A stretch of 41,557 nt of DNA from a virus (IMGVR_UViG_3300045988_063404), one strand, 5' to 3'. Shown: positions 563-41,557, numbered from the stretch's first letter. Notes: generated by a model from the letters alone, not told the origin. Numbers and translations: made by a program.

Positions 563-854
563 TAATTAAATTCTAACTAGACATTGTTTGTTAACATGAG
601 ATATAATATAGATACAGAAACATATCTTTGAAAATTAAATATTGTAATTCGACGTGTGACTGGACATAATAGCACACTTGCTTTTTATTACTGGCACTAA
701 TAAAAAGAACGAATATAGCATGGCCTATGGTGCGACATAGGCTAGGGACGTTGGCACACCTGAAAAAACGAACAGGAATACATCGACTAACATGGTGGAT
801 AAATCTAATATTCAGAGAAATAATTAAAAAGTAGAATTAAAAGGTGTAATTGAA

Positions 855-1058
855 ATGGAAAATAATAATGGAATTGACGCATGGGAAATAAAGATGTTAC
901 ACAATATGACATTGTGGGGATTGATAACGCCCAAGATTGAATCAATCGTAGCTAGATATTCAAGCATGATTGATAATGCAAAAACTATTAATGATAAAAA
1001 ACAGATTGAACATGAATTTATTGTTACTATGTATTCTTACGGTATCATTTGTGACTAG
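855..1058 (+). CDS. Hypothetical early protein (67 aa)
   Basis: ORF with an AAAGGTG Shine-Dalgarno-like sequence about 8 nt upstream. It sits between the first early gene and the RNA polymerase. No motif recognised. Confidence 0.5.
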   Translation: MENNNGIDAWEIKMLHNMTLWGLITPKIESIVARYSSMIDNAKTINDKKQIEHEFIVTMYSYGIICD

Positions 1059-1073
1059 CATAGAAAACATATC

Positions 1074-1147
1074 AAGACACACTAGTTAAATAGTTAGATA
1101 GTTAGTAGTTAGTAGCTAGTTACCTGGTGTGTCTATTATTTTTTTTT
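1074..1147 (+). terminator. Terminator-like structure: 8-bp stem AGACACAC/GTGTGTCT around a large TAG-rich loop, followed by a T9 run
   Basis: AGACACAC at 1074-1081 is complementary to GTGTGTCT at 1127-1134, followed by ATTATTTTTTTTT. The ~45-nt loop is unusually large for an intrinsic terminator. Confidence 0.35.
1083..1122. repeat. TAG-rich element, copy 1 (TAGTTAAATAGTTAGATAGTTAGTAGTTAGTAGCTAGTTA)
   Basis: The 22-mer TAGTTAGTAGTTAGTAGCTAGT at 1099-1120 is identical to 4067-4088. Confidence 0.8.
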
Positions 1148-1169
1148 ATCAAGAATGGAGAACGAAGCT

Positions 1170-3794
1170 ATGAATATTACGCTGAATGAAGAGCTTGAAT
1201 TAGAAGGTGAGTATCGACACATAGCAATGAAAAAACTCAAAGAGACACTATCCAAAAAAGAAGAAAATGGAGAAGCAATTCATACGTCTATGGGCGCAGG
1301 TATTATTAATCACCTTTATGTGAACCTTGCAAGTAATATGAGAATCTGGTTAGCTGCGCAGCTAGCACCTAAACGGGGAGTAAAGCCTATGTATTATCAG
1401 TTTCTCAAGTATGCTCATGCACAATTTGAAGATGAAGATACATTTATTTCTATCTTGTGTCTTTCCCTTTTATCTAATGTAATTAATCAAATAGCTTTAC
1501 CTAATGATAGAAGACATCCAACACTTACTAACATAGGGGAAAGTACGGGCCGACAACTCGTAGATGAAGTTCACTTGCAGGAATTTTTAAATTACTTGCA
1601 AGGGGATGAGTATCAATCTTATATTAATAGTGCAGTATTTCAGAAATGGCTTAAAACACATGACAAAAAAATGTTTGAATTTACTAACATCCCTATAGGT
1701 ATCGCAAGGGGACTCAAGTCTCGTAATAGTGACTATTACAGGCGTTACTATGTCCAGCAGATTGAGAACAAAATAGTATCCGCAGGTATTCCATGGTCTG
1801 CCAAGAAATTTGATAAAAATGTATTTTTCACTTTAGGAAGCAAGCTAATTGAGGTTTTATTAGCGTCTACAGATCTTTTTGAACTGAAATCAGAAGGTGG
1901 TGATATTGATGAGCTACATGCTACTCAAAAATTTATGGACGTATGGCAGACCAATACAGACTATGTACTTCTTCATGCTTATAAAACATGTCCTACGATA
2001 ATACCGCCAAGAACCTGGACAGATATAGATGAAGGAGGATATTATGGGGAACTTGCAACCTTTAATAACATTCTGCGTCTGTATCGTTTTCAAGACGGTG
2101 GCTATTATTATAAAAAGTACATGCAGAAACTTAAATCAGCAGATCTTGCGTCACCAATGAAGGCCCTTAATACTATTCAAAAAACGCCATGGAAGATTGA
2201 TAAAAAGGTTCTTGAAGTAGCAAAAGAGCTTGTCAAAATGGGTGGGGATCGAGCTGGTCTTCCCTCAACTGAACCATTTAAAGGGCTTCCCAAGTTATAT
2301 CATCCAACTGAAAAACAACTCAAGGAACATAAACATAAAGCCTATATGATATATAAAAAAGAAGCAAGTCGCAAGGGCAAGCTGATTAGAGTATTAGCTA
2401 ACATCAAGACAGCTGATAGATTCAAGAACTACGAACGTATTTATTTTCCATGCAATATGGATTTTAGAGGTCGTATCTATCCCATTCCAGCTTTTAGCTT
2501 TCAGGGAGATGATCTAAATAAGGGACTTCTCCAGTTTGCAGATACACCAAAAATTACAGACCCAGCTAGTGAACGATGGTTCTTGATTGCAGGTGCAGAA
2601 TTTGCAGGGATTGATAAAGTGTCTTTTGCAGATGAAATTAATTGGATTAAGAAGAACGAACGTAATATTCTTGACACTGCTTCAGACCCAATAGCTATGC
2701 TAGATTGGTGGGGAAATCTTGATGCTCCATTTGAGTTTTTACAGTTTTGTTTTGAGTATCAGAAAATGGTAAACTACAAGGCAAGTCATAATGGTTCTAT
2801 CATAGGCTGGTCTACAGGCGTTCCGGTCGCTTTTGATGGAACATGCAGCGGATTACAGCATTTTTCAGCAATACTTAGAGATCCCATTGGAGCTGAGGCG
2901 GTAAACCTCAAACCATCTGATAAACCTCACGATATTTATGGTCAAGTAGCACAAATTGTTAATCAAGTCCTAAAATATGATTCAGAACATGGTACATCAG
3001 ATGCCTGGGATGATGAAAAAAACAAGCTCAAGTTAGGTACAAAGACACTTGCACAGTTATGGCTTAACTTTGGTGTAACTAGAAAAGTTACTAAGCGTTC
3101 TGTCATGACACTGGCATATGGTTCTAAACAGTTTGGGTTTAGGGATCAAGTTCTTGAAGACACAATTAAACCTCATATGGATGAAGGTGTCTGGACAGAG
3201 AGCAATGCTAATCAATCAGCAGGATATATGGCTAAACTAATTTGGGAAGCAGTTAGAAAAGTAGTAGTTAAAGCCGTAGAAGGTATGGAATGGCTTCAGA
3301 AGGTGGCTAGAATGATCTGCAAGAATGAAAATGTGGTGCAATGGACAACTCCAATGGGTCTTTTGATTCATCAACCATACTTAACGCACCAAGTCAAGAC
3401 ATATCGCTTACGCTTTGCACAGACACAGAAGAGAATTTACGTCCCCTACACTTTGGGAAATATAGATAGCAGAAAGCAAGCTAATGCCATAGCACCTAAT
3501 TTCATTCATTCTATGGATGCTAGTCACTTGCAGTTGACTATATGCACTGCTACAGACCAAGGTATAAACCATTTTGCGATGATTCACGATTCTTATGGAA
3601 CCACAGTAGCAGACGCCGAACGGCTCTTCAAGACTATCAGAGAGTGCTTTGTGAAGATGTATACGGAACATGACGTACTTCAAGAGTTTGCTGATGAAGT
3701 ATCACACCTAACAGAAAAGGAACTTCCTGAAATGCCAAGCAAAGGAGCATTTGATATTAAAGAAGTCTTAAATAGCCTTTATGCGTTCCATTAA
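1170..3794 (+). CDS. Single-subunit DNA-directed RNA polymerase (T7 gp1-like)
   Basis: Colinear with T7 RNAP from memory: FPCNMDFRGRIYP, AFDGTCSGLQHFSA, VTKRSVMTLAYGSKQFGFR, APNFIHSMDASH, IHDSYGT, and the C-terminus YAFH versus T7 FAFA. ATG 1170 (MNITLNE, compare T7 MNTINIA) has a GGAGA Shine-Dalgarno sequence 8 nt upstream; ATG 1155 has none. Confidence 0.97.
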   Translation: MNITLNEELELEGEYRHIAMKKLKETLSKKEENGEAIHTSMGAGIINHLYVNLASNMRIWLAAQLAPKRGVKPMYYQFLKYAHAQFEDEDTFISILCLSLLSNVINQIALPNDRRHPTLTNIGESTGRQLVDEVHLQEFLNYLQGDEYQSYINSAVFQKWLKTHDKKMFEFTNIPIGIARGLKSRNSDYYRRYYVQQIENKIVSAGIPWSAKKFDKNVFFTLGSKLIEVLLASTDLFELKSEGGDIDELHATQKFMDVWQTNTDYVLLHAYKTCPTIIPPRTWTDIDEGGYYGELATFNNILRLYRFQDGGYYYKKYMQKLKSADLASPMKALNTIQKTPWKIDKKVLEVAKELVKMGGDRAGLPSTEPFKGLPKLYHPTEKQLKEHKHKAYMIYKKEASRKGKLIRVLANIKTADRFKNYERIYFPCNMDFRGRIYPIPAFSFQGDDLNKGLLQFADTPKITDPASERWFLIAGAEFAGIDKVSFADEINWIKKNERNILDTASDPIAMLDWWGNLDAPFEFLQFCFEYQKMVNYKASHNGSIIGWSTGVPVAFDGTCSGLQHFSAILRDPIGAEAVNLKPSDKPHDIYGQVAQIVNQVLKYDSEHGTSDAWDDEKNKLKLGTKTLAQLWLNFGVTRKVTKRSVMTLAYGSKQFGFRDQVLEDTIKPHMDEGVWTESNANQSAGYMAKLIWEAVRKVVVKAVEGMEWLQKVARMICKNENVVQWTTPMGLLIHQPYLTHQVKTYRLRFAQTQKRIYVPYTLGNIDSRKQANAIAPNFIHSMDASHLQLTICTATDQGINHFAMIHDSYGTTVADAERLFKTIRECFVKMYTEHDVLQEFADEVSHLTEKELPEMPSKGAFDIKEVLNSLYAFH

Positions 3795-3812
3795 AAGCTA
3801 TAAAATGTCTAG

Positions 3813-3836
3813 TAATAGAGACACAGATATAGAAAC
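3813..3836 (+). promoter_or_regulatory. Phage-promoter-like variant (TAATAGAGACACAGATATAG)
   Basis: One substitution from the TAATTGAGAC core, located 24 nt upstream of the consensus copy at 3837. Function uncertain. Confidence 0.3.
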
Positions 3837-3860
3837 TAATTGAGACACACAATAGGGGAA
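3837..3860 (+). promoter_or_regulatory. Phage RNAP promoter, TAATTGAGACACACAATAGGGGAA (predicted +1 G at 3855)
   Basis: Same length and layout as T7 TAATACGACTCACTATAGGGAGA. The 10-mer TAATTGAGAC recurs at 4280, 16212, 16237 and 37838. Confidence 0.75.
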
Positions 3861-3965
3861 AGGGAGAAAGACTCTTTAAGATATCTTTAGGAGTAGTACT
3901 AGATAATCTTAATTCTAACTACTATATACTATCTATTATCTATCTATTAAAGATACTTAATATAA

Positions 3966-4012
3966 ATATCTTAAAGAATATCTTAAAGAATATCTTAAAG
4001 AATATTTTAAGA
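3966..4012. repeat. 12-bp tandem repeat ATATCTTAAAGA x about 4
   Basis: Direct reading: three exact units and one degenerate unit. Confidence 0.9.
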
Positions 4013-4055
4013 GCCTTTTAGGATTACTATTAGTTATCTTATAAGGCTCTTTTTT
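4009..4055 (+). terminator. Terminator-like hairpin: 9-bp stem AAGAGCCTT/AAGGCTCTT, 25-nt loop, T-run
   Basis: 4009-4017 is complementary to 4043-4051, followed by TTTT. The large loop makes function uncertain. Confidence 0.35.
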
Positions 4056-4066
4056 GCTTTTATATT

Positions 4067-4098
4067 TAGTTAGTAGTTAGTAGCTAGTAGATAGTAGC
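4067..4098. repeat. TAG-rich element, copy 2 (TAGTTAGTAGTTAGTAGCTAGTAGATAGTAGC)
   Basis: Shares a 22-mer with 1099-1120. It also shares the 16-mer TAGCTAGTAGATAGTA (4081-4096) with 37951-37966. Confidence 0.8.
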
Positions 4099-4279
4099 TT
4101 TAAGAGTTCTTATGGTATCCAGACGACACCTGAAGATATAGAAGCTCTATATTTATCTATTGCTAAAACATGGTTTAGAATCCAGATAATTCAGCTGTGT
4201 GTCTATCAAACTGTGTGTCTGTTACTATTGCCTCCGGCGGATGCAATTGATAACAGCTCTCATTTAGCAGTTTACCAAT

Positions 4280-10294: not shown

Positions 10295-12178
10295 ATGAAA
10301 GTAGATTGGAAAGATCGTGAAGTATCTATGGGTATCTTTAGGGCAAAGTATGCCAAGAACCCTGAAGAAACTCCAGAAGAATTTTGTGAAAGAGTAGCAT
10401 CTATTGTGCGCCCAGAGCTTCACGACTTTGTTAAAGAGGGTCTGGAAAGTGGTACGTTCTGCTTTGGTGGACGTACCCTCTATATGGCAGGTAGACCAGA
10501 AGTTAAGGCATCTTCGTCTAACTGCTACATTATGCCAATGCCAGAAGATGACATTGCATCCATTTACAAGTCCAATGCAGAGATGGCTCGTATCTTTTCT
10601 CGTGGTGGTGGAGCGGGTGTAAACATCTCCAATCTCAGACCAAAGGGTGCAAAGGTAAGAAACGCAGCAGAGACTTCAACAGGGGCTGTGTCTTTCTTGG
10701 AGCTTTATAATACAACAGGAAACATCATTGGTGCTAGGGGGCGCAGAGCAGCTGAGATGATTATCCTCAACTGTGAACATCCAGACATTGAAGCTCTGCT
10801 TGATATGAAGGAGTCTGGAGCTAAGCTGGCATCTATGAATATTTCTGTCCTTTTCACTGATGAGTTTATGGAAGCCGTTCTGAATAATAAGAAGTTCCGT
10901 CTGCACTTTGAATGTAAAGACACTGGCGAGAACATTGAGAAGTTTATTGATGCTAGAAATTTCTTCACACACTTCTGTGAGGTTGCTTGGAATATGGGAG
11001 ATCCGGGGGTGTTATTCAATGACCGTATTCAGCAGCATAATTTTAATCCTAATCGTCCTAGTTATCATATTTCTGCTTCCAATCCATGCAGCGAATTTCT
11101 TGGAGCTGATTATAGCTCTTGTAATCTCGGGTCTATTAACGTATACAGCTTTGTCAGAAATAAGTTTAGCATTGCTGCATTTTTTGACTACAAGGCGTTC
11201 TCGGAAGCAGTAGTAAGAGGCGTTTTAGCACTGAATGATGTTCTCTCTTATGGTTACGATAAGCAGCCTCTTCCAGAGAACAAGAAGTGCATTGATGATT
11301 GGAGACAGATTGGTTTAGGACTATTTGGGTTGGCAGATGCTATGATTGCTCTGCATATCAAATATGGCTCTGAGGAGTCTATTAAATTCGTAGACACGCT
11401 CTTAAATACCATGCATAATATGGCTCTAAAAGCGTCTGTAGATGAAGCAATCAAATTTGGTAGCTATGGTAAGTTCTACAAAGGTATCCTTCCAATGGTT
11501 GATAAAGACCTGATGTCTCCAGATGAACTGAAAGATGTTATGGAACATGGGATGGCTAATGCTTCTCTGCTGTCTATTGCTCCAACTGGATCTATGAGTC
11601 TCTTTATGGGCAATTACACTGGTGGGTGTGAACCTATCTTTAAACTTTACTATGACCGTTCTACACATAAAATGGAGAAGACGGGAGATCATTTCCGTGT
11701 CTATGCACGATCCATTGAGGATCTTCTAAAATACTATGATTGCCCTCTTGATATGACGGTAGAGGAAATCAAAGAGATGTTTCCATGGGTCGTAGAAGCA
11801 CATGACATTCCATGGGCGAGTCGTGTAATTATCCAGGCAACAATGCAAAAATATGTAGACAATGCTATCAGCTCTACTGTCAACCTTCCACATGATGCAA
11901 CTGTAGATGATATTTTCAATATCTATGTAGCTGCTTGGAGAAGTGGGTGCAAAGGTATTACGGTATTTCGTGATGGTTGTAAGCGAGGAAATATTCTTGG
12001 GGTTGAAGATACTAAGAAAGAAGAAGTACAGAAGAAGGAAGAAACAGCACCTAAGCAGCCAAAATGTAGTGGTGATGCGGATTACAGAATTTGTCCGAAC
12101 TGTCATGAAAAACTCTTCAAAGTAGAAGGGCATTGTGGTTACTGTGTTGGTTGCGGGCATAGTGCTTGCATGGTTTAA
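10295..12178 (+). CDS. nrdJ: Ribonucleotide reductase, class II (adenosylcobalamin-dependent, NrdJ-like)
   Basis: Active-site SNPCSEF, ISSTVNLP and KGITVFRDGC, plus a C-terminal Cys cluster CPNCHEKL...CGYCVGCGHSAC typical of short class II RNRs. The class assignment is from motif memory only. Confidence 0.7.
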   Translation: MKVDWKDREVSMGIFRAKYAKNPEETPEEFCERVASIVRPELHDFVKEGLESGTFCFGGRTLYMAGRPEVKASSSNCYIMPMPEDDIASIYKSNAEMARIFSRGGGAGVNISNLRPKGAKVRNAAETSTGAVSFLELYNTTGNIIGARGRRAAEMIILNCEHPDIEALLDMKESGAKLASMNISVLFTDEFMEAVLNNKKFRLHFECKDTGENIEKFIDARNFFTHFCEVAWNMGDPGVLFNDRIQQHNFNPNRPSYHISASNPCSEFLGADYSSCNLGSINVYSFVRNKFSIAAFFDYKAFSEAVVRGVLALNDVLSYGYDKQPLPENKKCIDDWRQIGLGLFGLADAMIALHIKYGSEESIKFVDTLLNTMHNMALKASVDEAIKFGSYGKFYKGILPMVDKDLMSPDELKDVMEHGMANASLLSIAPTGSMSLFMGNYTGGCEPIFKLYYDRSTHKMEKTGDHFRVYARSIEDLLKYYDCPLDMTVEEIKEMFPWVVEAHDIPWASRVIIQATMQKYVDNAISSTVNLPHDATVDDIFNIYVAAWRSGCKGITVFRDGCKRGNILGVEDTKKEEVQKKEETAPKQPKCSGDADYRICPNCHEKLFKVEGHCGYCVGCGHSACMV

Positions 12179-12203: not shown

Positions 12204-13541
12204 ATGCTTATCTTTGATATTGAGACTGATGGTCTGTTAGACACAATGACGAAAATTCACTGTATGAGTATATCTGATGGACACCATAATGTTACTGGTT
12301 ATAGACCAGATGAAACTGAAGATGGAGTAAAGAGACTCTGGGAAGCTGTGAATAACGGAGAAGGAATTTGTGGACATAATATTATTAACTTCGATATTCC
12401 AGCTATCCAGAAGATCTATCCATGGTTTGATATACCTAGAGACAAGAGGCAGTATGTTGTAGACACATTAGTTCTGGCTAGACTGGTATTTTCCAATATT
12501 TCTGAGTCTGACTATGATGCTTTTAGACACAAGGAGATGCCGGGGGCTTTAATTGGGTCGCACACCTTAAAGGCTTACGGCTATCGTCTTGGTGTCTATA
12601 AAGGCACTTATGCAGAAGATACAGAAGATGCTTGGGCAATGTTTAACGAAGATATGCTGAAGTACAATAAGCAGGATGTAGTTGTTACGGAAGCTCTTTA
12701 CGAAAAGGAACTGGAAAAACATTATCCTGAAGCTGCTATTGCCCTAGAGCATAAGGCTCAGTGGCTAATGACAAAGCAGGAACAGAATGGCTTTCCCTTC
12801 GATATTGAAGGAGCAAAGGAACTTGAGAAGACCCTTAGAGATAGAGTTGCTACTGTGTCTTCAGAAATCAAAAATCTTGCTCCCCCTATTCCTGGAAAAG
12901 TATTCATTCCTAAAAGAGACAATAAGAGACTTGGATACAAAGCTGGTGTCCCTATTCAGAGATACAAAGAGTTCAATCCTGGTTCAAGACAGCAGATTGA
13001 ATGGGTCATTAGACAACATTATGGGTACAGTCCATCAAATGCAGACTTGTATGCAGAAGATGAAAGATTGAAAATTGATGAAACAACTTTTCATTTCATT
13101 GCAAAAGACAAAGAAGCTCCAGAAGAAGTTAGGGTGTTAGCTCCATTATTTGAAGAGCAGTTGATGCTTACGAAGCGTCTTGGTCAGCTTGCAGATGGAA
13201 CGCAGGCATGGTTGAAGTGTGTGAAAGGAGATGAAAAGATTCATGGAAGAGTCAATCCTAATGGCACTGTTAGTGGGCGTGCTACTCATTCTCAGCCTAA
13301 TGTTACTCAGGTTCCTCATGCGTCCAGTCCCTATGGCAAGGAGTGTCGTAGCTTATTTGGGGTGCCTAAAGGGTGGATTCAGGCTGGCATGGATGCTTGT
13401 GGTTTGGAGCTTAGGTGTCTATCTCATTTCCTATACCCTTATGATAATGGTGCATATGCTCATGAAGTAGTTCACGGTGACATTCATACAGCCAATCAGA
13501 AAGCTGCTGGTCTACCTACAAGAGATAAAGCAAAGACGTTT
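12204..13541 (+). CDS. DNA polymerase (T7 gp5-like, family A), exon 1
   Basis: 3'-5' exonuclease motif IFDIETDG and the polymerase domain up to GDIHTANQKAAGLPTRDKAKTF (T7: GDIHTKNQIAAELPTRDNAKTF). The homology stops after KTF, and the read-through tail NNMGVYKS...* is non-homologous. Confidence 0.9.
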
Positions 13542-14216
13542 AACAATATGGGCGTCTATAAATCCATTGAAAACGGTGAAACTCTTACTATGTAAGACAA
13601 TACCGTGCGAAGCCATCCAACTTAAAGGAGGTGATATTGTGAAGAGATGTATAATATGTGGAAAACTTTTGCCTTTAGAAGCATTTCATAAAAGTGCTAG
13701 TAATAAAGATGGGCATGATAATAGATGCAAACATTGCAAAAGTATTATGGCACATAACAAAAGAGAGTCTGATTATTTCAGGCAATACTGCATAACGAAG
13801 AAGAGTGAGTGTAAACACAAAAACATTCCTTTTGATTTAGACCCAGAGTATTTAGAAGAAATATGGACAGGAGAATGCCCAATCTTCCATGTACCTTTAA
13901 GCAAAAACCATAAAGGTAGAGGGTCTACGTATTCAGCGCATTTAGATAGATTTTACCCTAATAAGGGGTACGTCAAAGGAAATGTAGCATGGATAAGTGG
14001 TAGAGCAAACCGAATCAAATATGATGCAAGTATCAAAGAATTGAAACAGATTGTAAGTTGGATGGAACGTGTAACGACTATTCCGAAAGGAAGTACACCT
14101 AAGCAGGTGGAAGCGGTGGATACAGAGGATTCTGTAAAGAGATAGTCTGTTCTATATGGTGACATATAGCGGTCGAAAGACGCTTTGTAACTAGCGACTA
14201 CAGGGGAACACAAAAC
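13542..14216 (+). mobile_element. Putative group I intron (about 675 nt) carrying an HNH homing endonuclease, inserted in polymerase motif B
   Basis: The boundaries come from restoring KTF|IYAFLYGAGDEK (T7: KTFIYGFLYGAGDEK). Exon GACGTTT (13535-13541) can pair with GGGCGTC (13550-13556), giving U-G pairs at the splice site (P1). A GNRA-capped 7-bp hairpin lies at 14152-14169. The last intron nucleotide is C, not the canonical G. Confidence 0.6.
13639..14145 (+). CDS. HNH homing endonuclease (intron-encoded)
   Basis: GTG 13639 lies 7 nt after AAGGAGG. The protein has an N-terminal Cys cluster CIICG...CKHCK and an HNH core AHLDRFYPNKGYVKGNVAWISGRANRIK. Confidence 0.85.
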   Translation: MKRCIICGKLLPLEAFHKSASNKDGHDNRCKHCKSIMAHNKRESDYFRQYCITKKSECKHKNIPFDLDPEYLEEIWTGECPIFHVPLSKNHKGRGSTYSAHLDRFYPNKGYVKGNVAWISGRANRIKYDASIKELKQIVSWMERVTTIPKGSTPKQVEAVDTEDSVKR

Positions 14217-14750
14217 ATATACGCATTTTTATATGGTGCTGGTGATGAAAAGATGGGTAAGCTCATTGGGGGTGACGCAAAGGATGGTAAGGCAATTAAG
14301 AAAAAGTTCTTGAAAGCTAATCCAGCTATTGTGCAACTTCGAAAGGCTATCCATGATTGTTTGGTAGCAGAAGAGTATCGTGGAAAGATCATTAAGTGGC
14401 ATAGAAAGTACCTAAAGGGTCTTGATGGTAGACACTTGCATGTTAGATCTGTTCACTCAGCTCTTAACTTACTTCTACAATCTGCGGGTGCTTTGGTCTG
14501 TAAATACTGGATCGTAAGAACAGAAGAGCGTTTAATAGCTCGGGGGCTAAAGCATGGCTGGGATGGTGATTTTACCTTAATGGCATGGATTCATGATGAA
14601 GCCCAGTATGCTTGTAGAACTGAGGAGATTGCTAACATAGTGATCGAAGAAGGGGAGAAGGCTATGAGAGACACACAAGCCCATTTTAATTTCAGAGTGC
14701 AGTTGGATGTTGATGGAATGAAAGGCAAAAACTGGTATGACTGTCATTAA
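14217..14750 (+). CDS. DNA polymerase (T7 gp5-like), exon 2
   Basis: IYAFLYGAGDEKMGK..., KGLDGRHLHVRSVHSALNLLLQSAGALVCKYW, GDFTLMAWIHDEAQ and the C-terminal NWYDCH are colinear with the T7 gp5 C-terminus (...NWAICH). Confidence 0.9.
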   Translation: MYAFLYGAGDEKMGKLIGGDAKDGKAIKKKFLKANPAIVQLRKAIHDCLVAEEYRGKIIKWHRKYLKGLDGRHLHVRSVHSALNLLLQSAGALVCKYWIVRTEERLIARGLKHGWDGDFTLMAWIHDEAQYACRTEEIANIVIEEGEKAMRDTQAHFNFRVQLDVDGMKGKNWYDCH

Positions 14751-16236: not shown

Positions 16237-16260
16237 TAATTGAGACACTCATTAGAGGAG
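16237..16260 (+). promoter_or_regulatory. Phage RNAP promoter, TAATTGAGACACTCATTAGAGGAG (predicted +1 G at 16255)
   Basis: Same core and spacing as 3837, 4280 and 37838. Its position is analogous to T7 phi6.5. Confidence 0.7.
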
Positions 16261-19312: not shown

Positions 19313-20302
19313 ATGGCAGATATAACTGTCGCACAGCCCGGTCTTATTCAGGGTACTTCTGATGCACTGGGTGCTTATCTGAAGGTATTTGCAGGTGAAA
19401 CTCTTGCAGCCTTCTCTCGTTCTTCCGTTACTATGGGGAGACACATTGTTCGTACTATTTCTTCAGGCAAATCTAGTCAGTTTCCAGTTTTTGGTCGTGC
19501 TGATGCTGCTTACCTGAAACCTGGTAAGTCTCTTGATGATATTCGTCAGAACATTCCAACTGGTGAAAAGGTAATCGTAATTGATGGTCTTTTGACTACT
19601 TCTCAGATGATTCCAGATATTGATGAAGCCCTGTCTCACTTTGATGTACGTTCTGAATATACCAAACAGATGGGTGAAGCACTTGCTCTGAAGATGGATG
19701 GAGCTGTCCTTGCTGAAGCTGCTAAGATGGTAGTAGCTAACAAGGAAAATCTTACTGGTCTTGGTAAAGGTGAAATCATCACTAAAAAGATTGCAGCAGC
19801 AGATATTGGTGTTACCGAAGCTGAAGGTAAAGCTATTGTTCAGTCACTTCTGGAAATTAAGGCTAAAATGTCTAATAATTACGTTCCAGAATCTGAACGC
19901 TATGTCTTCATGACACCGACTGCTCGTACCTCTCTTATTGCATCTCTTGTGGCTATTAATCGTGACTATGGTGGTGTTGCTTCTATTACGGAAGGTGACA
20001 TTCTCCGTATCGCAGGGTTTGATATCATTGAATGCCCACATCTGACTATGGGGGGTGCTGAAGTTAATGAGGGACTGCTTCAGGGTACAGGTCATGTATT
20101 CCCGGCTGATTACAAGGATAAATGTGCCTTCATTGCAATGCACAAGTCCGCAGTCGGTACTGTGAAATTGCGTGATCTGAAGCTCGAACGTGCAAGACGA
20201 GCTGAATATCAGGCTGATATGCTGGCTGCTTCTTATGCCGTTGGTCATGGTGGCCTTCGTCCAGAAGCAGCTTACATGGGATGCATTGAAGCATCTGTGT
20301 AA
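19313..20302 (+). CDS. Major capsid protein (T7 gp10-like)
   Basis: LKVFAGETLAAFSRSSVTMGRHIVRTISSGKSSQFPVFGR, SAVGTVKLRDLKLERARRAEYQAD and GHGGLRPEAA are close to T7 gp10A. Confidence 0.97.
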   Translation: MADITVAQPGLIQGTSDALGAYLKVFAGETLAAFSRSSVTMGRHIVRTISSGKSSQFPVFGRADAAYLKPGKSLDDIRQNIPTGEKVIVIDGLLTTSQMIPDIDEALSHFDVRSEYTKQMGEALALKMDGAVLAEAAKMVVANKENLTGLGKGEIITKKIAAADIGVTEAEGKAIVQSLLEIKAKMSNNYVPESERYVFMTPTARTSLIASLVAINRDYGGVASITEGDILRIAGFDIIECPHLTMGGAEVNEGLLQGTGHVFPADYKDKCAFIAMHKSAVGTVKLRDLKLERARRAEYQADMLAASYAVGHGGLRPEAAYMGCIEASV

Positions 20303-20341
20303 TGGTTAGTCGAGTATAGAGATATACTCAAAATATAAAAA

Positions 20342-20371
20342 GGGGTCGTATAGCTAATACTGTATGACCCC
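20342..20371 (+). terminator. Strong hairpin after the capsid gene (T7 Tphi-position terminator candidate)
   Basis: GGGGTCGTATAG (20342-20353) pairs with CTGTATGACCCC (20360-20371) in a 12-bp stem with two G-U pairs. The loop is CTAATA and it is followed by TTATAT. Confidence 0.6.
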
Positions 20372-20377
20372 TTATAT

Positions 20378-20439
20378 GTCCCTTTAGTTTAATGGTAGAA
20401 CACTTGTAGATTTGGGTTCGAGTCCCAAAAGGAACACCA
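20378..20439 (+). ncRNA. tRNA-derived / tRNA-like element with encoded CCA but no anticodon arm
   Basis: The acceptor stem pairs GTCCCTT with AAGGAAC (one C-A mismatch). The D-arm is GTTT-AATGGTA-GAAC and the T-arm is TTGGG-TTCGAGT-CCCAA, followed by discriminator A and CCA. Only 9 nt (CTTGTAGAT) occupy the place where the anticodon arm and variable loop (about 22 nt) should be. Confidence 0.6.
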
Positions 20440-20475
20440 CAACTATTTATTTATTTTAAAAAGAAAGGAGCTACT

Positions 20476-21045
20476 ATGATTCTTACATCTAATAAAGCTC
20501 TTGAAGCTATCAATGATATGTTAGCAGCGGTAGGAGAAGCTCCTGTCAATTCTCTTGAAGACTCACAGAATGTCGATGTTGAGAACGCCATTAGAATCTT
20601 AGAGAGAGTCAACAGACAGGTGCAGTCTAAGGGGTGGTCTTTCAATCATATTGAAGACACCTATCTGAATGTTGATATTTTGACTAATAAAATTAAATGG
20701 CAGGATGATCTTCTTTACATTGTAGGAACTGATGGCACAAAGTACATCCAAAGGGGAGACTATGTATATGACTTTGATAATCAAACAGACACATTTGACT
20801 CTAACATTGAAGTAGAGATTATTAGACTCGTAGACTTTGACTACATGCCTTCAGTAGCTAGAGACTACATTGTAGCTAAGGCATCTCGTATATTTCAGTC
20901 TCAGACGCTTGATGATGATAGCATTGGTCAGAATCTTATGTATCAGGAAAAAGAAGCATGGGCAGCACTTCAGGAATATGAAATGGAACTTGGAGACTAT
21001 TCTATGTTTGGTATTCAGCCTGTACAGATCTTAAAGGAACGATAA
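20476..21045 (+). CDS. Tail tubular protein A (T7 gp11-like)
   Basis: INDMLAAVGEAPVNSLE and RVNRQVQSKGWSFN versus T7 VNDILASIGEPPVSTLE and KINRQIQSRGWTFN. Confidence 0.93.
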   Translation: MILTSNKALEAINDMLAAVGEAPVNSLEDSQNVDVENAIRILERVNRQVQSKGWSFNHIEDTYLNVDILTNKIKWQDDLLYIVGTDGTKYIQRGDYVYDFDNQTDTFDSNIEVEIIRLVDFDYMPSVARDYIVAKASRIFQSQTLDDDSIGQNLMYQEKEAWAALQEYEMELGDYSMFGIQPVQILKER

Positions 21046-39007: not shown

Positions 39008-39262
39008 TTCCTTAACATATCTTTAGGTATTCCCTAACATATCTTTAGGTATTACCTAACATATCTATAAGGTTGCTGGTGGAACCTTAAAGATATCTTT
39101 AGGTAATACATAACATATCTAGCAGGTAGCACCTCAAGCAGCTGGCTGGTGGCAGCTAACAATGATGGCAGCTGGAAACTTAATGAATATTTAAAGATAA
39201 CCTTAGGTATATTTTTAGGTAATACCTAAATTATTTATTGGATAACACCTAAATTATAAATT
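39008..39262. repeat. Array of about 22-bp units, each containing the inverted pair CCTAAC...TTAGG (e.g. ACCTAACATATCTTTAGGTA)
   Basis: Three consecutive 22-bp units lie at 39010-39075. Further CCTTAAAGATATCTTTAGGTAA, CCTTAGGTAT, TTTAGGTAATACCTAAATT and ACACCTAAATT copies follow up to about 39262. Confidence 0.8.
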
Positions 39263-39278
39263 TGCTATCTGTTATTTT

Positions 39279-39472
39279 TAATTTTCTAATAATTTTCTAA
39301 TAAAGTACTCATAAATCACTCATAAATCACTCATAAATCACTAATAAAGCACTCATAAAGCACTCATAAAGCACTCATAAATCACTAATAAAGCACTCAT
39401 AAAGCACTCATAAAGCACTCATAAAGCACTAATAAAGCACTCATAAAGCACTCATAAAGTACTCATATCTAT
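39279..39472. repeat. 11-bp tandem repeat, about 17 units (CTCATAAAGCA / CTCATAAATCA / CTAATAAAGCA variants)
   Basis: Direct reading: the unit phase is maintained from 39297 to 39461, preceded by two TAATTTTCTAA units of the same period. Confidence 0.9.
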
Positions 39473-39562
39473 ATTATCTATTCATATCTATGACTCTTGA
39501 TAAAATCATAACATATAATCTATGAGTATCTTTATAAGTATTTTATACATATAATAGGTGTT

Positions 39563-39795
39563 CCAGGGAATATGCTAAATATTACATAAAGTAATACATT
39601 TGATAGTTAAGATTACATAAAGTCATACATAGTAGCGTACCTGGTGCGCATATCAGTGTAAATCCTACATAATCAATTCAATTTAATTTAAGAAAAAAAG
39701 ATTGACATAGAAAAAATGTAGTGATATAATGCACTTAACAAGCAATGTAGCTTGTGTTTATTATCATTATTTATTATGTAAAGGAGACTTACATT
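39563..39795 (+). repeat. Early promoter-leader cassette, copy A (paralogous to 40243-40456)
   Basis: Blocks shared with copy B: CCAGGGA..., ATATTACATAAAGTAATACAT, AAAGTCATACATAGTAGCGTACCTGGT, AAAAAAAGATTGAC, TATAATGCACTTAACAAGCAATGTAGCTTG, TATTATCATTATTTATTAT and GTAAAGGAGACTTACATTATG. Confidence 0.85.
39702..39730 (+). promoter_or_regulatory. Consensus sigma70 promoter, TTGACA-17 nt-TATAAT with TGn extended -10 and an upstream A-tract
   Basis: TTGACA at 39702-39707, TG at 39722-39723 and TATAAT at 39725-39730. Confidence 0.75.
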
Positions 39796-40242: not shown

Positions 40243-40456
40243 CCAGGGAGAATAGCTAATATTACATAAAGTAATACATGAGAACAGTTAAGAGTACAAA
40301 AAGTCATACATAGTAGCGTACCTGGTAGCAACAAATAAAAAGAAAAAAAAAGATTGACTTATAAAAAATAAGATGTTATAATGCACTTAACAAGCAATGT
40401 AGCTTGGGTCTATTATCATTATTTATTATATATTTATTGTAAAGGAGACTTACATT
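40243..40456 (+). repeat. Early promoter-leader cassette, copy B (paralogous to 39563-39795)
   Basis: See copy A: the same ordered blocks, including an identical 30-nt stretch from the -10 element into the leader. Confidence 0.85.
40354..40382 (+). promoter_or_regulatory. Sigma70 promoter, TTGACT-17 nt-TATAAT with TGn extended -10 and an upstream A-tract
   Basis: TTGACT at 40354-40359, TG at 40374-40375 and TATAAT at 40377-40382. Confidence 0.75.
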
Positions 40457-40984: not shown

Positions 40985-41015
40985 AGGAGACTATGAATCA
41001 TAGTCTCTTGTTTTT
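40985..41015 (+). terminator. Rho-independent terminator
   Basis: AGGAGACTATG (40985-40995) pairs with CATAGTCTCTT (40999-41009, one G-U pair). The loop is 3 nt and it is followed by GTTTTT. Confidence 0.7.
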
Positions 41016-41395
41016 GCGTTAGCTGCTACCTAATTGGTGTTAATTACTACTTAAATTTGCGTTAGCTGCTACTTAAATTTGCGTTAGCTGCTACCTAAAT
41101 TGGTGTTAGCTGCTACCTAATTGGTGTTAATTACTACCTAAATTGGTGTTAGCTGCTACCTAATTGGTGTTAATTACTACTTAAATTTGCGTTAGCTGCT
41201 ACTTAAATTTGCGTTAGCTGCTACCTAAATTGGTGTTAGCTGCTACCTAATTGGTGTTAATTACTACCTAAATTGGTGTTAGCTGCTACCTAATTGGTGT
41301 TAATTACTACTTAAATTGGTGTTAGCTGCTACCTAAATTGGTGTTAGCTGCTACCTAAAATTGGTGTTAGATTTTACCTAAAATATGTGTTACCC
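41016..41395. repeat. Array of about 21-22-bp units (TTGGTGTTAGCTGCTACCTAAA / TTGGTGTTAATTACTACCTAAA / TTTGCGTTAGCTGCTACTTAAA) with a 130-bp higher-order period
   Basis: Direct reading: the stretch starting at 41041 (TAATTACTACTTAAATTTGCGTTAGCTGCTACTTAAATTTGCGTTAGCTG) recurs exactly at 41171. About 17 units in total. Confidence 0.9.
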
Positions 41396-41402
41396 AAGCT
41401 GC

Positions 41403-41557
41403 ATTCAAGTTATAATACTCAAGTTGCAATATTCAAGTTATAATATTCAAGTTGCAATATTCAAGTTATAATACTCAAGTTGCAATATTCAAGTTACAAG
41501 ACTCAAGTTACAAGACTCAAGTTACAAGACTCAAGTTACAAGACTCAAGTTACAAGA
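41403..41557. repeat. 14-bp tandem repeat, 11 units (ATTCAAGTTATAAT / ACTCAAGTTGCAAT grading into ACTCAAGTTACAAG)
   Basis: Direct reading. The last four units are identical to the units at 1-55. Confidence 0.9.

Follow-up and report, generated by a model that had tools for sequence, protein, structure and literature searches.

A tRNA derivative without decoding ability, apparently maintained between the capsid and tail genes of uncultured T7-like phages

Introduction

Mitochondrial tRNAs that lie between coding regions reportedly act as cleavage signals that separate messages, a view ascribed to Ojala, Montoya and Attardi (1981). Substrates of RNase P other than tRNAs include the precursors of 4.5S RNA and tmRNA, the C4 RNAs of phages P1 and P7, the CI RNA of P4 and intercistronic operon sites, and for recognition it is enough that an acceptor-like helix ends in a 3' RCCA and follows a single-stranded leader. 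In plant mitochondria, t-elements, which are non-canonical cloverleaves with a conserved T arm (GGTTCRANYCC), adjoin mRNA ends in polycistronic transcripts, where cuts by RNase P and RNase Z make mRNA 3' or 5' ends and free a small stable RNA; elsewhere in plant mitochondrial transcripts, canonical tRNAs take on this role (Forner et al. 2007, PMC1920247). Vertebrate mascRNA and menRNA, from the 3' ends of MALAT1 and MEN-beta, are tRNA-like modules of ~60 nt with a reduced anticodon arm that lie just beyond a structure which stabilizes the RNA; cleavage by RNase P makes the 3' end of the RNA upstream and sets the small module free (PMC11693755). Here, we analyze an element at positions 20378-20439 of IMGVR_UViG_3300045988_063404, a viral DNA of 41,557 nucleotides that we refer to, over its whole length, as the window. 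Comparative sequence analysis indicates that this element derives from a tRNA, no longer decodes and is maintained by selection, in a "tRNA slot" conserved across an uncultured T7-like clade. No anticodon-less tRNA-like element is described from any phage in the literature searched, and we know of no non-tRNA RNase P substrate described at the capsid/tail gene junction of a T7-like phage.

Each of the described systems shares some features with this locus and differs in others. As in t-elements, the sequence GGTTCGAGTCC at 20415-20425 fits GGTTCRANYCC and the element is intergenic, a functional resemblance known here from sequence alone; t-elements, however, are organellar and eukaryotic, depend on a protein-only RNase P and have no sequence homology to the window element, which lies in a phage late operon served by a phage single-subunit polymerase, directly after a hairpin resembling the terminator Tphi. 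With mascRNA and menRNA the likeness is one of layout only, in that the element begins 6 nt past a -22.3 kcal/mol hairpin that closes the capsid message; the vertebrate modules belong to nuclear long noncoding RNAs, have a triple-helix stabilizer rather than a hairpin and receive their CCA post-transcriptionally. Against the Rfam model RF01684 the element reaches 18.2 bits, where the gathering score is 42.5, and it is not a member. Mitochondrial punctuation tRNAs still decode, whereas the window element is without the decoding part and has only the body relevant to processing. Ordinary phage tRNA genes have the same origin, but the element has no anticodon stem-loop, receives no call from ARAGORN and reads no codons. 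The tRNA-like domain of tmRNA likewise combines an acceptor stem and T arm with a CCA end and no anticodon arm; it differs in having G3.U70, a reduced D loop and a tag module, where the element has C3.A70 and no tag, and no tmRNA was found in the window by ARAGORN or Rfam. Non-tRNA substrates of RNase P, finally, do not derive from a complete tRNA body with an intact elbow, unlike the window element.

Results

Anatomy and detection of the element. The element is a tRNA body of 62 nt whose 17-nt anticodon stem-loop has been replaced by 4 nt, CUUG; it and the promoter, genes, hairpins and spacers around it, whose coordinates are given where they are discussed, all lie on the + strand. From the 5' end it comprises the acceptor strand GUCCCUU (20378-20384), U8 and A9 joining acceptor and D arm, a D arm (GUUU-AAUGGUA-GAAC, 20387-20401) with A14, A15, G18, G19 and A21, then A26, the CUUG linker (20403-20406), a variable loop (UAGAU, 20407-20411) with G46 and U48, a T arm (UUGGG-UUCGAGU-CCCAA, 20412-20428) that includes the GGTTCRANYCC match, and the acceptor 3' strand AAGGAAC with discriminator A73 and an encoded CCA (20429-20439). 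The acceptor stem has seven positions and a single mismatch, C3.A70, and the standard tRNA core nucleotides are all found: U8, A14, A15/U48, G18, G19, A21, G46, U54, U55, C56, A58 and G53-C61. The Rfam alignment underlies all of these assignments. To it are added pair counts for the acceptor strands and the D and T arms, the sequence itself for the 3' end, counts of the tertiary pairs 15:48, 18:55 and 19:56 for the D arm, covariation of 15:48 for the variable loop, and, for the linker, a homologous 9-nt stretch between D and T arms in four relatives (L076, L007, L054 and L077).

The Rfam tRNA model RF00005 matches 20378-20436 at 45 bits (gathering score 29; E = 1.6e-6 over the whole window), from model positions 1 to 71 and end to end apart from the anticodon stem-loop, where 17 model positions give way to 4 nt. 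ARAGORN called no tRNA or tmRNA gene in the window and likewise none in 15 close relatives. An earlier note on this DNA, made by a model from the sequence alone, had expected no call or a pseudo call from such programs; this held for ARAGORN, but Infernal calls a tRNA at the score just given. By ARAGORN and by a covariance model built from relatives, which finds one copy at 82.9 bits and nothing else above 12.8, this is the sole tRNA-like element in the genome. An acceptor stem, a D arm and a T arm of the T-Psi-C type are present, and a 5-bp anticodon stem with a 7-nt loop is absent; among determinants of aminoacylation, there is neither G3.U70 nor G-1. The sequence and its coordinates as first reported were exact (hairpin at 20342-20371, 6-nt spacer, element, and 36 nt to the ATG of gp11), and the earlier note's claims that the element cannot decode and that it retains the acceptor/T minihelix, the elbow and CCA are borne out by the replacement of the anticodon stem-loop, by the Rfam alignment and by pair counts.

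Contents of the slot in relatives. Relatives were gathered from IMG/VR by gp11 and by direct pattern scans, from a metagenome scan whose anchor, an invariant hairpin, lies upstream of the element and is therefore unbiased, from contigs with gp11 homologues 99-52% identical, and from one species-genome scan. Searches against phage isolates gave no match with megablast, matches to the capsid gene only (65-69% identity) with distant blastn, and identities of at most 52% for capsid and 50% for gp11 with tblastn, so that no isolate belongs to this clade; the three nearest isolates, when checked, had no tRNA-like element at the capsid-gp11 junction. One blastn match to a tRNA of a human-gut "Bacteriophage sp." was set aside as coming from an unrelated high-GC phage.

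Nearly all relatives down to ~49% gp11 identity carry a tRNA or tRNA-derived element between the capsid hairpin and gp11, and among relatives with at least 49% identity the slot is empty only in a small group at ~52-56% (L113, L117). Full tRNAs called by ARAGORN in the slot are Arg(TCT) in L033 and L073, CAT (Met or Ile2) in L096, L097, L115 and others, Asp(GTC) in L040, and Trp(CCA) in L091 and L130-L143. A single backbone underlies the Arg and CAT genes, which differ in the anticodon loop, and the window element aligns with this backbone through its acceptor, D and T arms. Because full tRNAs with the same backbone occupy the same slot, and given the Rfam match, we conclude from these comparisons, as the earlier note had supposed, that the element is tRNA-derived.

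Most relatives carry a non-decoding version, and ~17 distinct ones occur among relatives with 49-99% gp11 identity. Linkers of 8-9 nt are found in the window, L076, L007, L054, L077, L012 and L014. Elsewhere the anticodon arm is represented by a 3-bp (L015, L064) or 5-bp (L010, L013) stem with a tetraloop, by hairpins of 22 (L011/L018), 24 (L008) or ~45 nt (L142-146), or by anticodon loops of 5 (L119/121), 6 (L088/L095), 8 (L122-126) or 9 nt (L094). The L019-21 group has an acceptor/T minihelix only, and L089 a bare hairpin followed by ACCA-CAACUAUU, which resembles the minimal non-tRNA substrate of RNase P. The 9-nt linker of the window, CUUGUAGAU, and that of L054 and L077, CUUUGAGAU, have equal length and agree at 7 of 9 positions, whereas the four-fold degenerate sites of these phages are only 57-61% identical to those of the window. 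The earlier note had asked whether close relatives carry a full-length tRNA of which this copy is an obvious recent deletion. Full-length tRNAs of Arg-UCU, CAU, Asp and Trp type do stand at the site, but this copy is not obviously a recent deletion, because the linker is common to phages whose four-fold sites are ~43% diverged; the element thus appears not to be a one-off event.

Several other observations concern the slot and its surroundings. Between the UCU genes (L033/L073) and the CAU genes (L096/L115 and others), the tRNA body keeps 90% identity, against 35% at four-fold sites, which looks like an anticodon switch on a conserved body. AGA makes up 217 of 429 Arg codons in the long + strand open reading frames (ORFs) of the window, and the phage uses it heavily although the ancestral slot tRNA, of Arg-UCU type, is now unable to read it; the capsid gene contrasts with the AGA-rich genome in using CGT for 11 of its 15 Arg codons. 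Group I introns (Rfam RF00028) occur in capsid-region genes of relatives, at 1369-1947 in L015 (63 bits) and as a partial 34-bit match at 1-458 in L094, where the intron has a shortened capsid ORF and an Endonuclease_7 ORF beside it; in the window, no such intron was detected. In L090-type loci (L090/L114), the capsid-gp11 spacer is 286 nt long and holds two minihelix-like elements and a long extra hairpin, and in L093 an additional Gly-rich (collagen-like) ORF of 97 amino acids (1066-1359) lies between capsid gene and hairpin.

Selection on the non-decoding body. Pairing was assessed in an alignment of 14 distinct non-decoding elements of the window's own family. A first MAFFT alignment misplaced the D-stem bulge in three sequences, and the two later alignments, including the one used here, are model-based; they lean towards structure, a bias partly offset by slid controls and by tertiary pairs outside the model. 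Stem cells are paired in 97.8% of cases; sliding the partners lowers this to 42-69%. Both sides have changed in 6 of 16 stem pairs (17 cells). The covariation score of 0.309, from sequences that are related to one another, exceeds the shuffled mean of 0.189 and was reached by none of 500 shuffles. Outside the model, the Levitt pair 15:48 covaries with 100% pairing (A-U in 12 elements, G-C in L012 and L014), as does the elbow pair 19:56 (G-C in 13, A-U in L007, a 98% relative of the window); 18:55 and 19:56 are kept in all 14 members.

Rates of change were compared in pairs of phages with the same lesion, using four-fold sites of capsid plus gp11 as the reference; since both phages of a pair share the lesion, it is older than their split. 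Identity is 85-98% in the arms and 60-74% at four-fold sites (Fisher p 2e-3 to 2e-8 in four of five pairs), and in 9 of 10 stem substitutions pairing is kept. Taken together, these comparisons point to purifying selection that maintains the tRNA body without its anticodon arm.

They also bear on the simplest account, which the earlier note had taken as its null hypothesis, namely that the element is a neutral relic, a tRNA pseudogene in decay that lost decoding first. Full tRNAs at the same site in relatives, the acceptor mismatch of the window copy and a thermodynamically undistinctive fold would all be expected of such a relic, and the closest relatives (L076, L007) are too similar to inform. 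A relic would not be expected, however, to leave the slot empty in a single group only, to conserve its arms far more than four-fold sites in same-lesion pairs, to accumulate compensatory substitutions in stems and two tertiary pairs, or to confine its indels to the anticodon region in many independent lineages. Even with the caveats considered below, a simple neutral relic fits poorly, and we regard simple decay as distinctly unlikely, the body being kept with compensatory changes in many diverged relatives.

In two groups with different backbones, L083-L088 and L119/L121, G18 has changed to A (D loop AAUAGAA) and U55 to G (T loop UGCAAxU), independently; these paired changes may represent covariation of the 18:55 elbow contact.

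Transcriptional setting and a possible role in processing. The major capsid gene (19313-20302; 329 amino acids) was assigned from the ORF list, from tblastn matches to T7-like major capsid proteins (~50% identity) and from Pfam capsid families on homologues in relatives, and the gene for gp11-like tail tubular protein A (20476-21045), from the ORF list and PF17212 on homologues. Tail genes begin at 20476, and a gp12-like gene follows gp11. The last phage polymerase promoter upstream of the structural genes, TAATTGAGACACTCATTAGAG (16237-16257), was identified by a repeat family and a consensus search; in the window, the consensus TAATTGAGACACACAATAGGG matches only at 3837, 4280, 8225, 16237 and 37838, and no phage promoter was found by either approach between 16237 and 37838. 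Expression of the genes from gp11 to terminase therefore needs polymerase that reads through the capsid hairpin, which makes the location a sensible one for the processing signal on late mRNA that the earlier note had suggested.

That hairpin (20342-20371) is a Tphi-like stem of 12 bp with a folding free energy of -22.3 kcal/mol (z -7.5), and its outer stem covaries among relatives; it may be a leaky terminator and/or a 3' stabilizer of the capsid mRNA. It is followed not by a U-run but by UUAUAU (20372-20377), the presumed RNase P leader, with U at -1. The spacer between hairpin and element is ~4-8 nt across relatives, and U is found at -1 in 27 of 27 variants tabulated, mostly within UAU, as well as in L090, which was read by eye. 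In distant T7-like relatives without a tRNA-like element, the hairpin is followed by T5-T10 and then the gp11 ribosome-binding site, whereas in slot-bearing relatives it is mostly followed by (U)UAUAU. The longest T-run has a median of 2 in slot-bearing and 6 in element-free loci (Mann-Whitney p 4e-8), a comparison that ignores kinship, uses windows of unequal length and has one Trp locus misfiled among the controls. Downstream, an A/U-rich spacer beginning CAACUAUU (20440-20475) runs for 36 nt to the ATG of gp11 at 20476 and contains the gp11 Shine-Dalgarno sequence AAGGAG at 20465-20470; within this spacer, CAACTATT is kept in close relatives and in L089.

Four features are recognized by bacterial RNase P: the stack of acceptor and T stems, the elbow of D and T loops (through the S-domain), the 3' RCCA (through L15), and a short single-stranded leader, with a preference at N(-1); the same review lists no contact with the anticodon arm, and hairpin substrates without an elbow are cut less accurately (PMC4919922). 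All of these determinants are in place in the window: a stack of 7 + 5 bp, elbow nucleotides G18, G19, U54, U55, C56 and A58, an encoded A73-C-C-A, and the 6-nt leader UUAUAU with U(-1). Moreover, the position of the element after the capsid hairpin is constant even where the identity of the tRNA has been swapped. Selection appears to keep an L-shaped core, made up of the 12-bp stack of acceptor and T stems, the elbow between D and T loops and the terminal RCCA, and miscleavage of elbow-less hairpin substrates would explain why the elbow is kept. Since the parts kept by the family are the parts that RNase P uses, we propose that a tRNA has been taken over as an RNase P punctuation signal that acts in cis on the late transcript, a proposal for which, in our judgment, the chances of being right and wrong are about equal. 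Both the cleavage and its effect on mRNA stability or stoichiometry are what we infer from the sequence.

Under this proposal, phage polymerase would start at the promoter at 16237 and read through a weak capsid hairpin into the tail, core and terminase genes, and host RNase P would cut between U20377 and G20378. The capsid mRNA would be left with a stable hairpin and UUAUAU, and so would have the same end whether the polymerase stops or reads through. Host 3'-processing nucleases would trim the element back to CCA, a step falling within 20440-20475, and the mRNA of gp11, gp12 and the genes that follow would be freed as a separate molecule, its stability uncoupled from that of the capsid mRNA; the released product would be an armless tRNA-like RNA of ~62 nt. 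A tRNA that first lodged in the slot would have doubled as a processing site, because a tRNA inside a polycistronic phage transcript must be excised, and once its decoding was dispensable, only that second role would have maintained it.

A number of points weigh against RNase P punctuation, or against the evidence of selection behind it. The U at -1 could be a mere remnant of the terminator tail, and the constant position could reflect the sole permissive intergenic site rather than a function in cis; long U-runs persist, besides, in slot-bearing L090/L114, L094 and L142-146. CCA is not universal, being ACAA in L054/L077 and absent from L019-type and L090-type elements, and 5 of the 14 family members, the window (C3.A70) included, have one acceptor mismatch. 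Phage mosaicism could raise the identity of the arms relative to flanking genes, L010 versus L013 and L015 versus L064 resemble module shuffling, and four-fold sites are not strictly neutral. The minimum free energy (MFE) of the element, -10.5 kcal/mol, is not significant by itself (z +0.4); z-scores of +0.5 to -2.6 for the element and 14 relatives offer no independent support, and the case for the element is thus one that homology and covariation make, not energy.

Alternatives to cis-acting punctuation. The retention of the whole tertiary core (U8-A14, 15:48, 18:55, 19:56, G46 and A58) goes beyond the needs of a minimal RNase P hairpin. This would suit a mimic acting in trans, in which the freed, CCA-ended armless tRNA is itself the functional product and excision only the means of making it, an idea compatible with processing by RNase P; it might be a decoy or sponge whose targets are host factors that recognize acceptor ends or elbows, for example tRNA-directed toxins, defense nucleotidyltransferases, the CCA-adding enzyme, modification enzymes or a synthetase. 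Most versions encode CCA, and the element shares its transcript with the most abundant late message. A trans-acting RNA, however, needs no strict position beside the capsid hairpin; some lineages are down to a minihelix or a hairpin with ACCA, some are without CCA, full decoding tRNAs of four identities replace the element in the slot, and no partner gene was identified. We therefore consider a trans-acting mimic unlikely. More specifically, the phage might make a decoy late in infection that soaks up host factors attacking or sensing tRNA acceptor ends or elbows, such as defense toxins that modify the 3' CCA or tRNA-binding sensors; a decoy without an anticodon cannot disturb decoding, which would explain repeated loss of the anticodon loop with the tertiary core intact. 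Conservation of the full core is the only bearing that the evidence has on such a decoy, which it otherwise neither supports nor excludes, and we rate both the decoy and these targets as rather improbable. The primer-like RNA that the earlier note had entertained gains no support, since the ORFs scanned include neither a reverse transcriptase nor a similar partner.

The proximity of the element to gp11, whose start codon is only 36 nt away, raises another possibility: that the element remains attached to the gp11-gp12 mRNA once RNase P has cut and protects it by a base-paired end with a 5' monophosphate, or that its 5' strand pairs with the gp11 Shine-Dalgarno sequence and gates translation as a switch. 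The MFE fold of 20336-20480 indeed pairs GUCCCUUU (20378-20385) with AAAGGAGC (20462-20471) at the Shine-Dalgarno sequence. This complementarity is confined to the window's own element family, being absent from the GGACACA, GGGGAA, Asp, Trp and GGGUCUU versions, and is for that reason probably coincidental; working tRNAs in the slot, moreover, must be released at their 3' ends. A 5' stabilizer or switch is accordingly very unlikely in our view.

The element could also be a partial copy of a host tRNA gene that serves as an attP-type integration site, and a 92%-identical relative of L096 does lie inside a 2.5-Mb Dialister contig, so that some members of the wider clade may be temperate. In that copy, though, the tRNA is internal, with capsid and gp11 on either side as in the free phage, instead of marking a junction. 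Each acceptor strand is retained and the two covary, neither of which an att core needs, a degenerate pattern of the 3' half found no bacterial tRNA gene in 185,579 genomes but only the Dialister phage copy, and no integrase was present among ten large ORFs scanned. The internal Dialister copy, the covarying acceptor strands and the lack of an integrase among those ORFs effectively exclude this reading. The contig in question (L099; Dialister sp. i34-0019-2H8, NZ_BAABYQ010000001.1) has a locus at 678-4258 that is collinear with the phage in the order gp12-gp11-tRNA(CAT)-capsid and represents a T7-like prophage or else a phage that was co-assembled with the contig. For the wider clade, this contig gives the only clue to a host; sample numbers in the style of the Human Microbiome Project (7000000xxx) suggest a human-associated origin for many relatives.

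Other features of the locus and genome. A second hairpin, GAGUAUA-GAGA-UAUACUC with a GNRA loop (20312-20329; -7.5 kcal/mol, z -4.6), begins 10 nt after the capsid stop codon and occurs once in the window. Every relative down to 68% gp11 identity has it with the same sequence, and so without covariation, amid flanks that diverge, which suggests a site recognized by a sequence-specific protein or acting at the DNA level. A phage promoter is ruled out here by the single copy and the lack of likeness to the promoter consensus. At five loci the 3' strand of the terminator resembles the acceptor 5' strand, a similarity judged to be compositional.

The window is a complete-looking T7-like podophage genome of 41.6 kb with a GC content of 38%, and its single-subunit RNA polymerase gene lies at 1155-3794. 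The replication module includes a ribonucleotide reductase gene (10295-12178; PF02867, E 4e-100) and a family-A DNA polymerase region (12204-14750) that appears interrupted: the ORF at 12204-13595 encodes the exonuclease domain and the beginning of the polymerase domain but no more of it, and it is followed by an overlapping ORF of 222 amino acids without a clear Pfam match and then by one of 165 amino acids. This may reflect a mobile insertion or a split gene. Dense tandem repeat arrays with units of 11, ~22 and 14 nt occupy 39231-39494, 41013-41402, 41375-41557 and 1-83; because the 14-nt array spans the window ends, the genome is permuted or terminally redundant. A strong sigma-70-like promoter region is present in two copies, 89% identical, at 39693-39780 and 40345-40432.

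Discussion

Because Infernal calls a tRNA here and ARAGORN nothing, elements of this kind may be mis-annotated as tRNA genes or missed. The slot amounts to a natural experiment on which parts of a tRNA are needed for roles other than decoding, with many lineages that have independently lost the anticodon loop and kept the acceptor/T stack, the elbow and RCCA, and such an element could serve as a compact, self-excising module for RNA processing.

If the reading as RNase P punctuation holds, this T7-like clade, which apparently comes from the human gut and has one branch tied to Dialister, would separate the expression of capsid from that of tail genes by means of the host's tRNA-processing machinery, and the 3' end of the phage's most abundant message would be formed in an unusual way; T7 itself depends on an efficient terminator together with RNase III sites. 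The locus would then be a counterpart, in a bacterial virus, of mitochondrial tRNA punctuation, plant t-elements and mascRNA.

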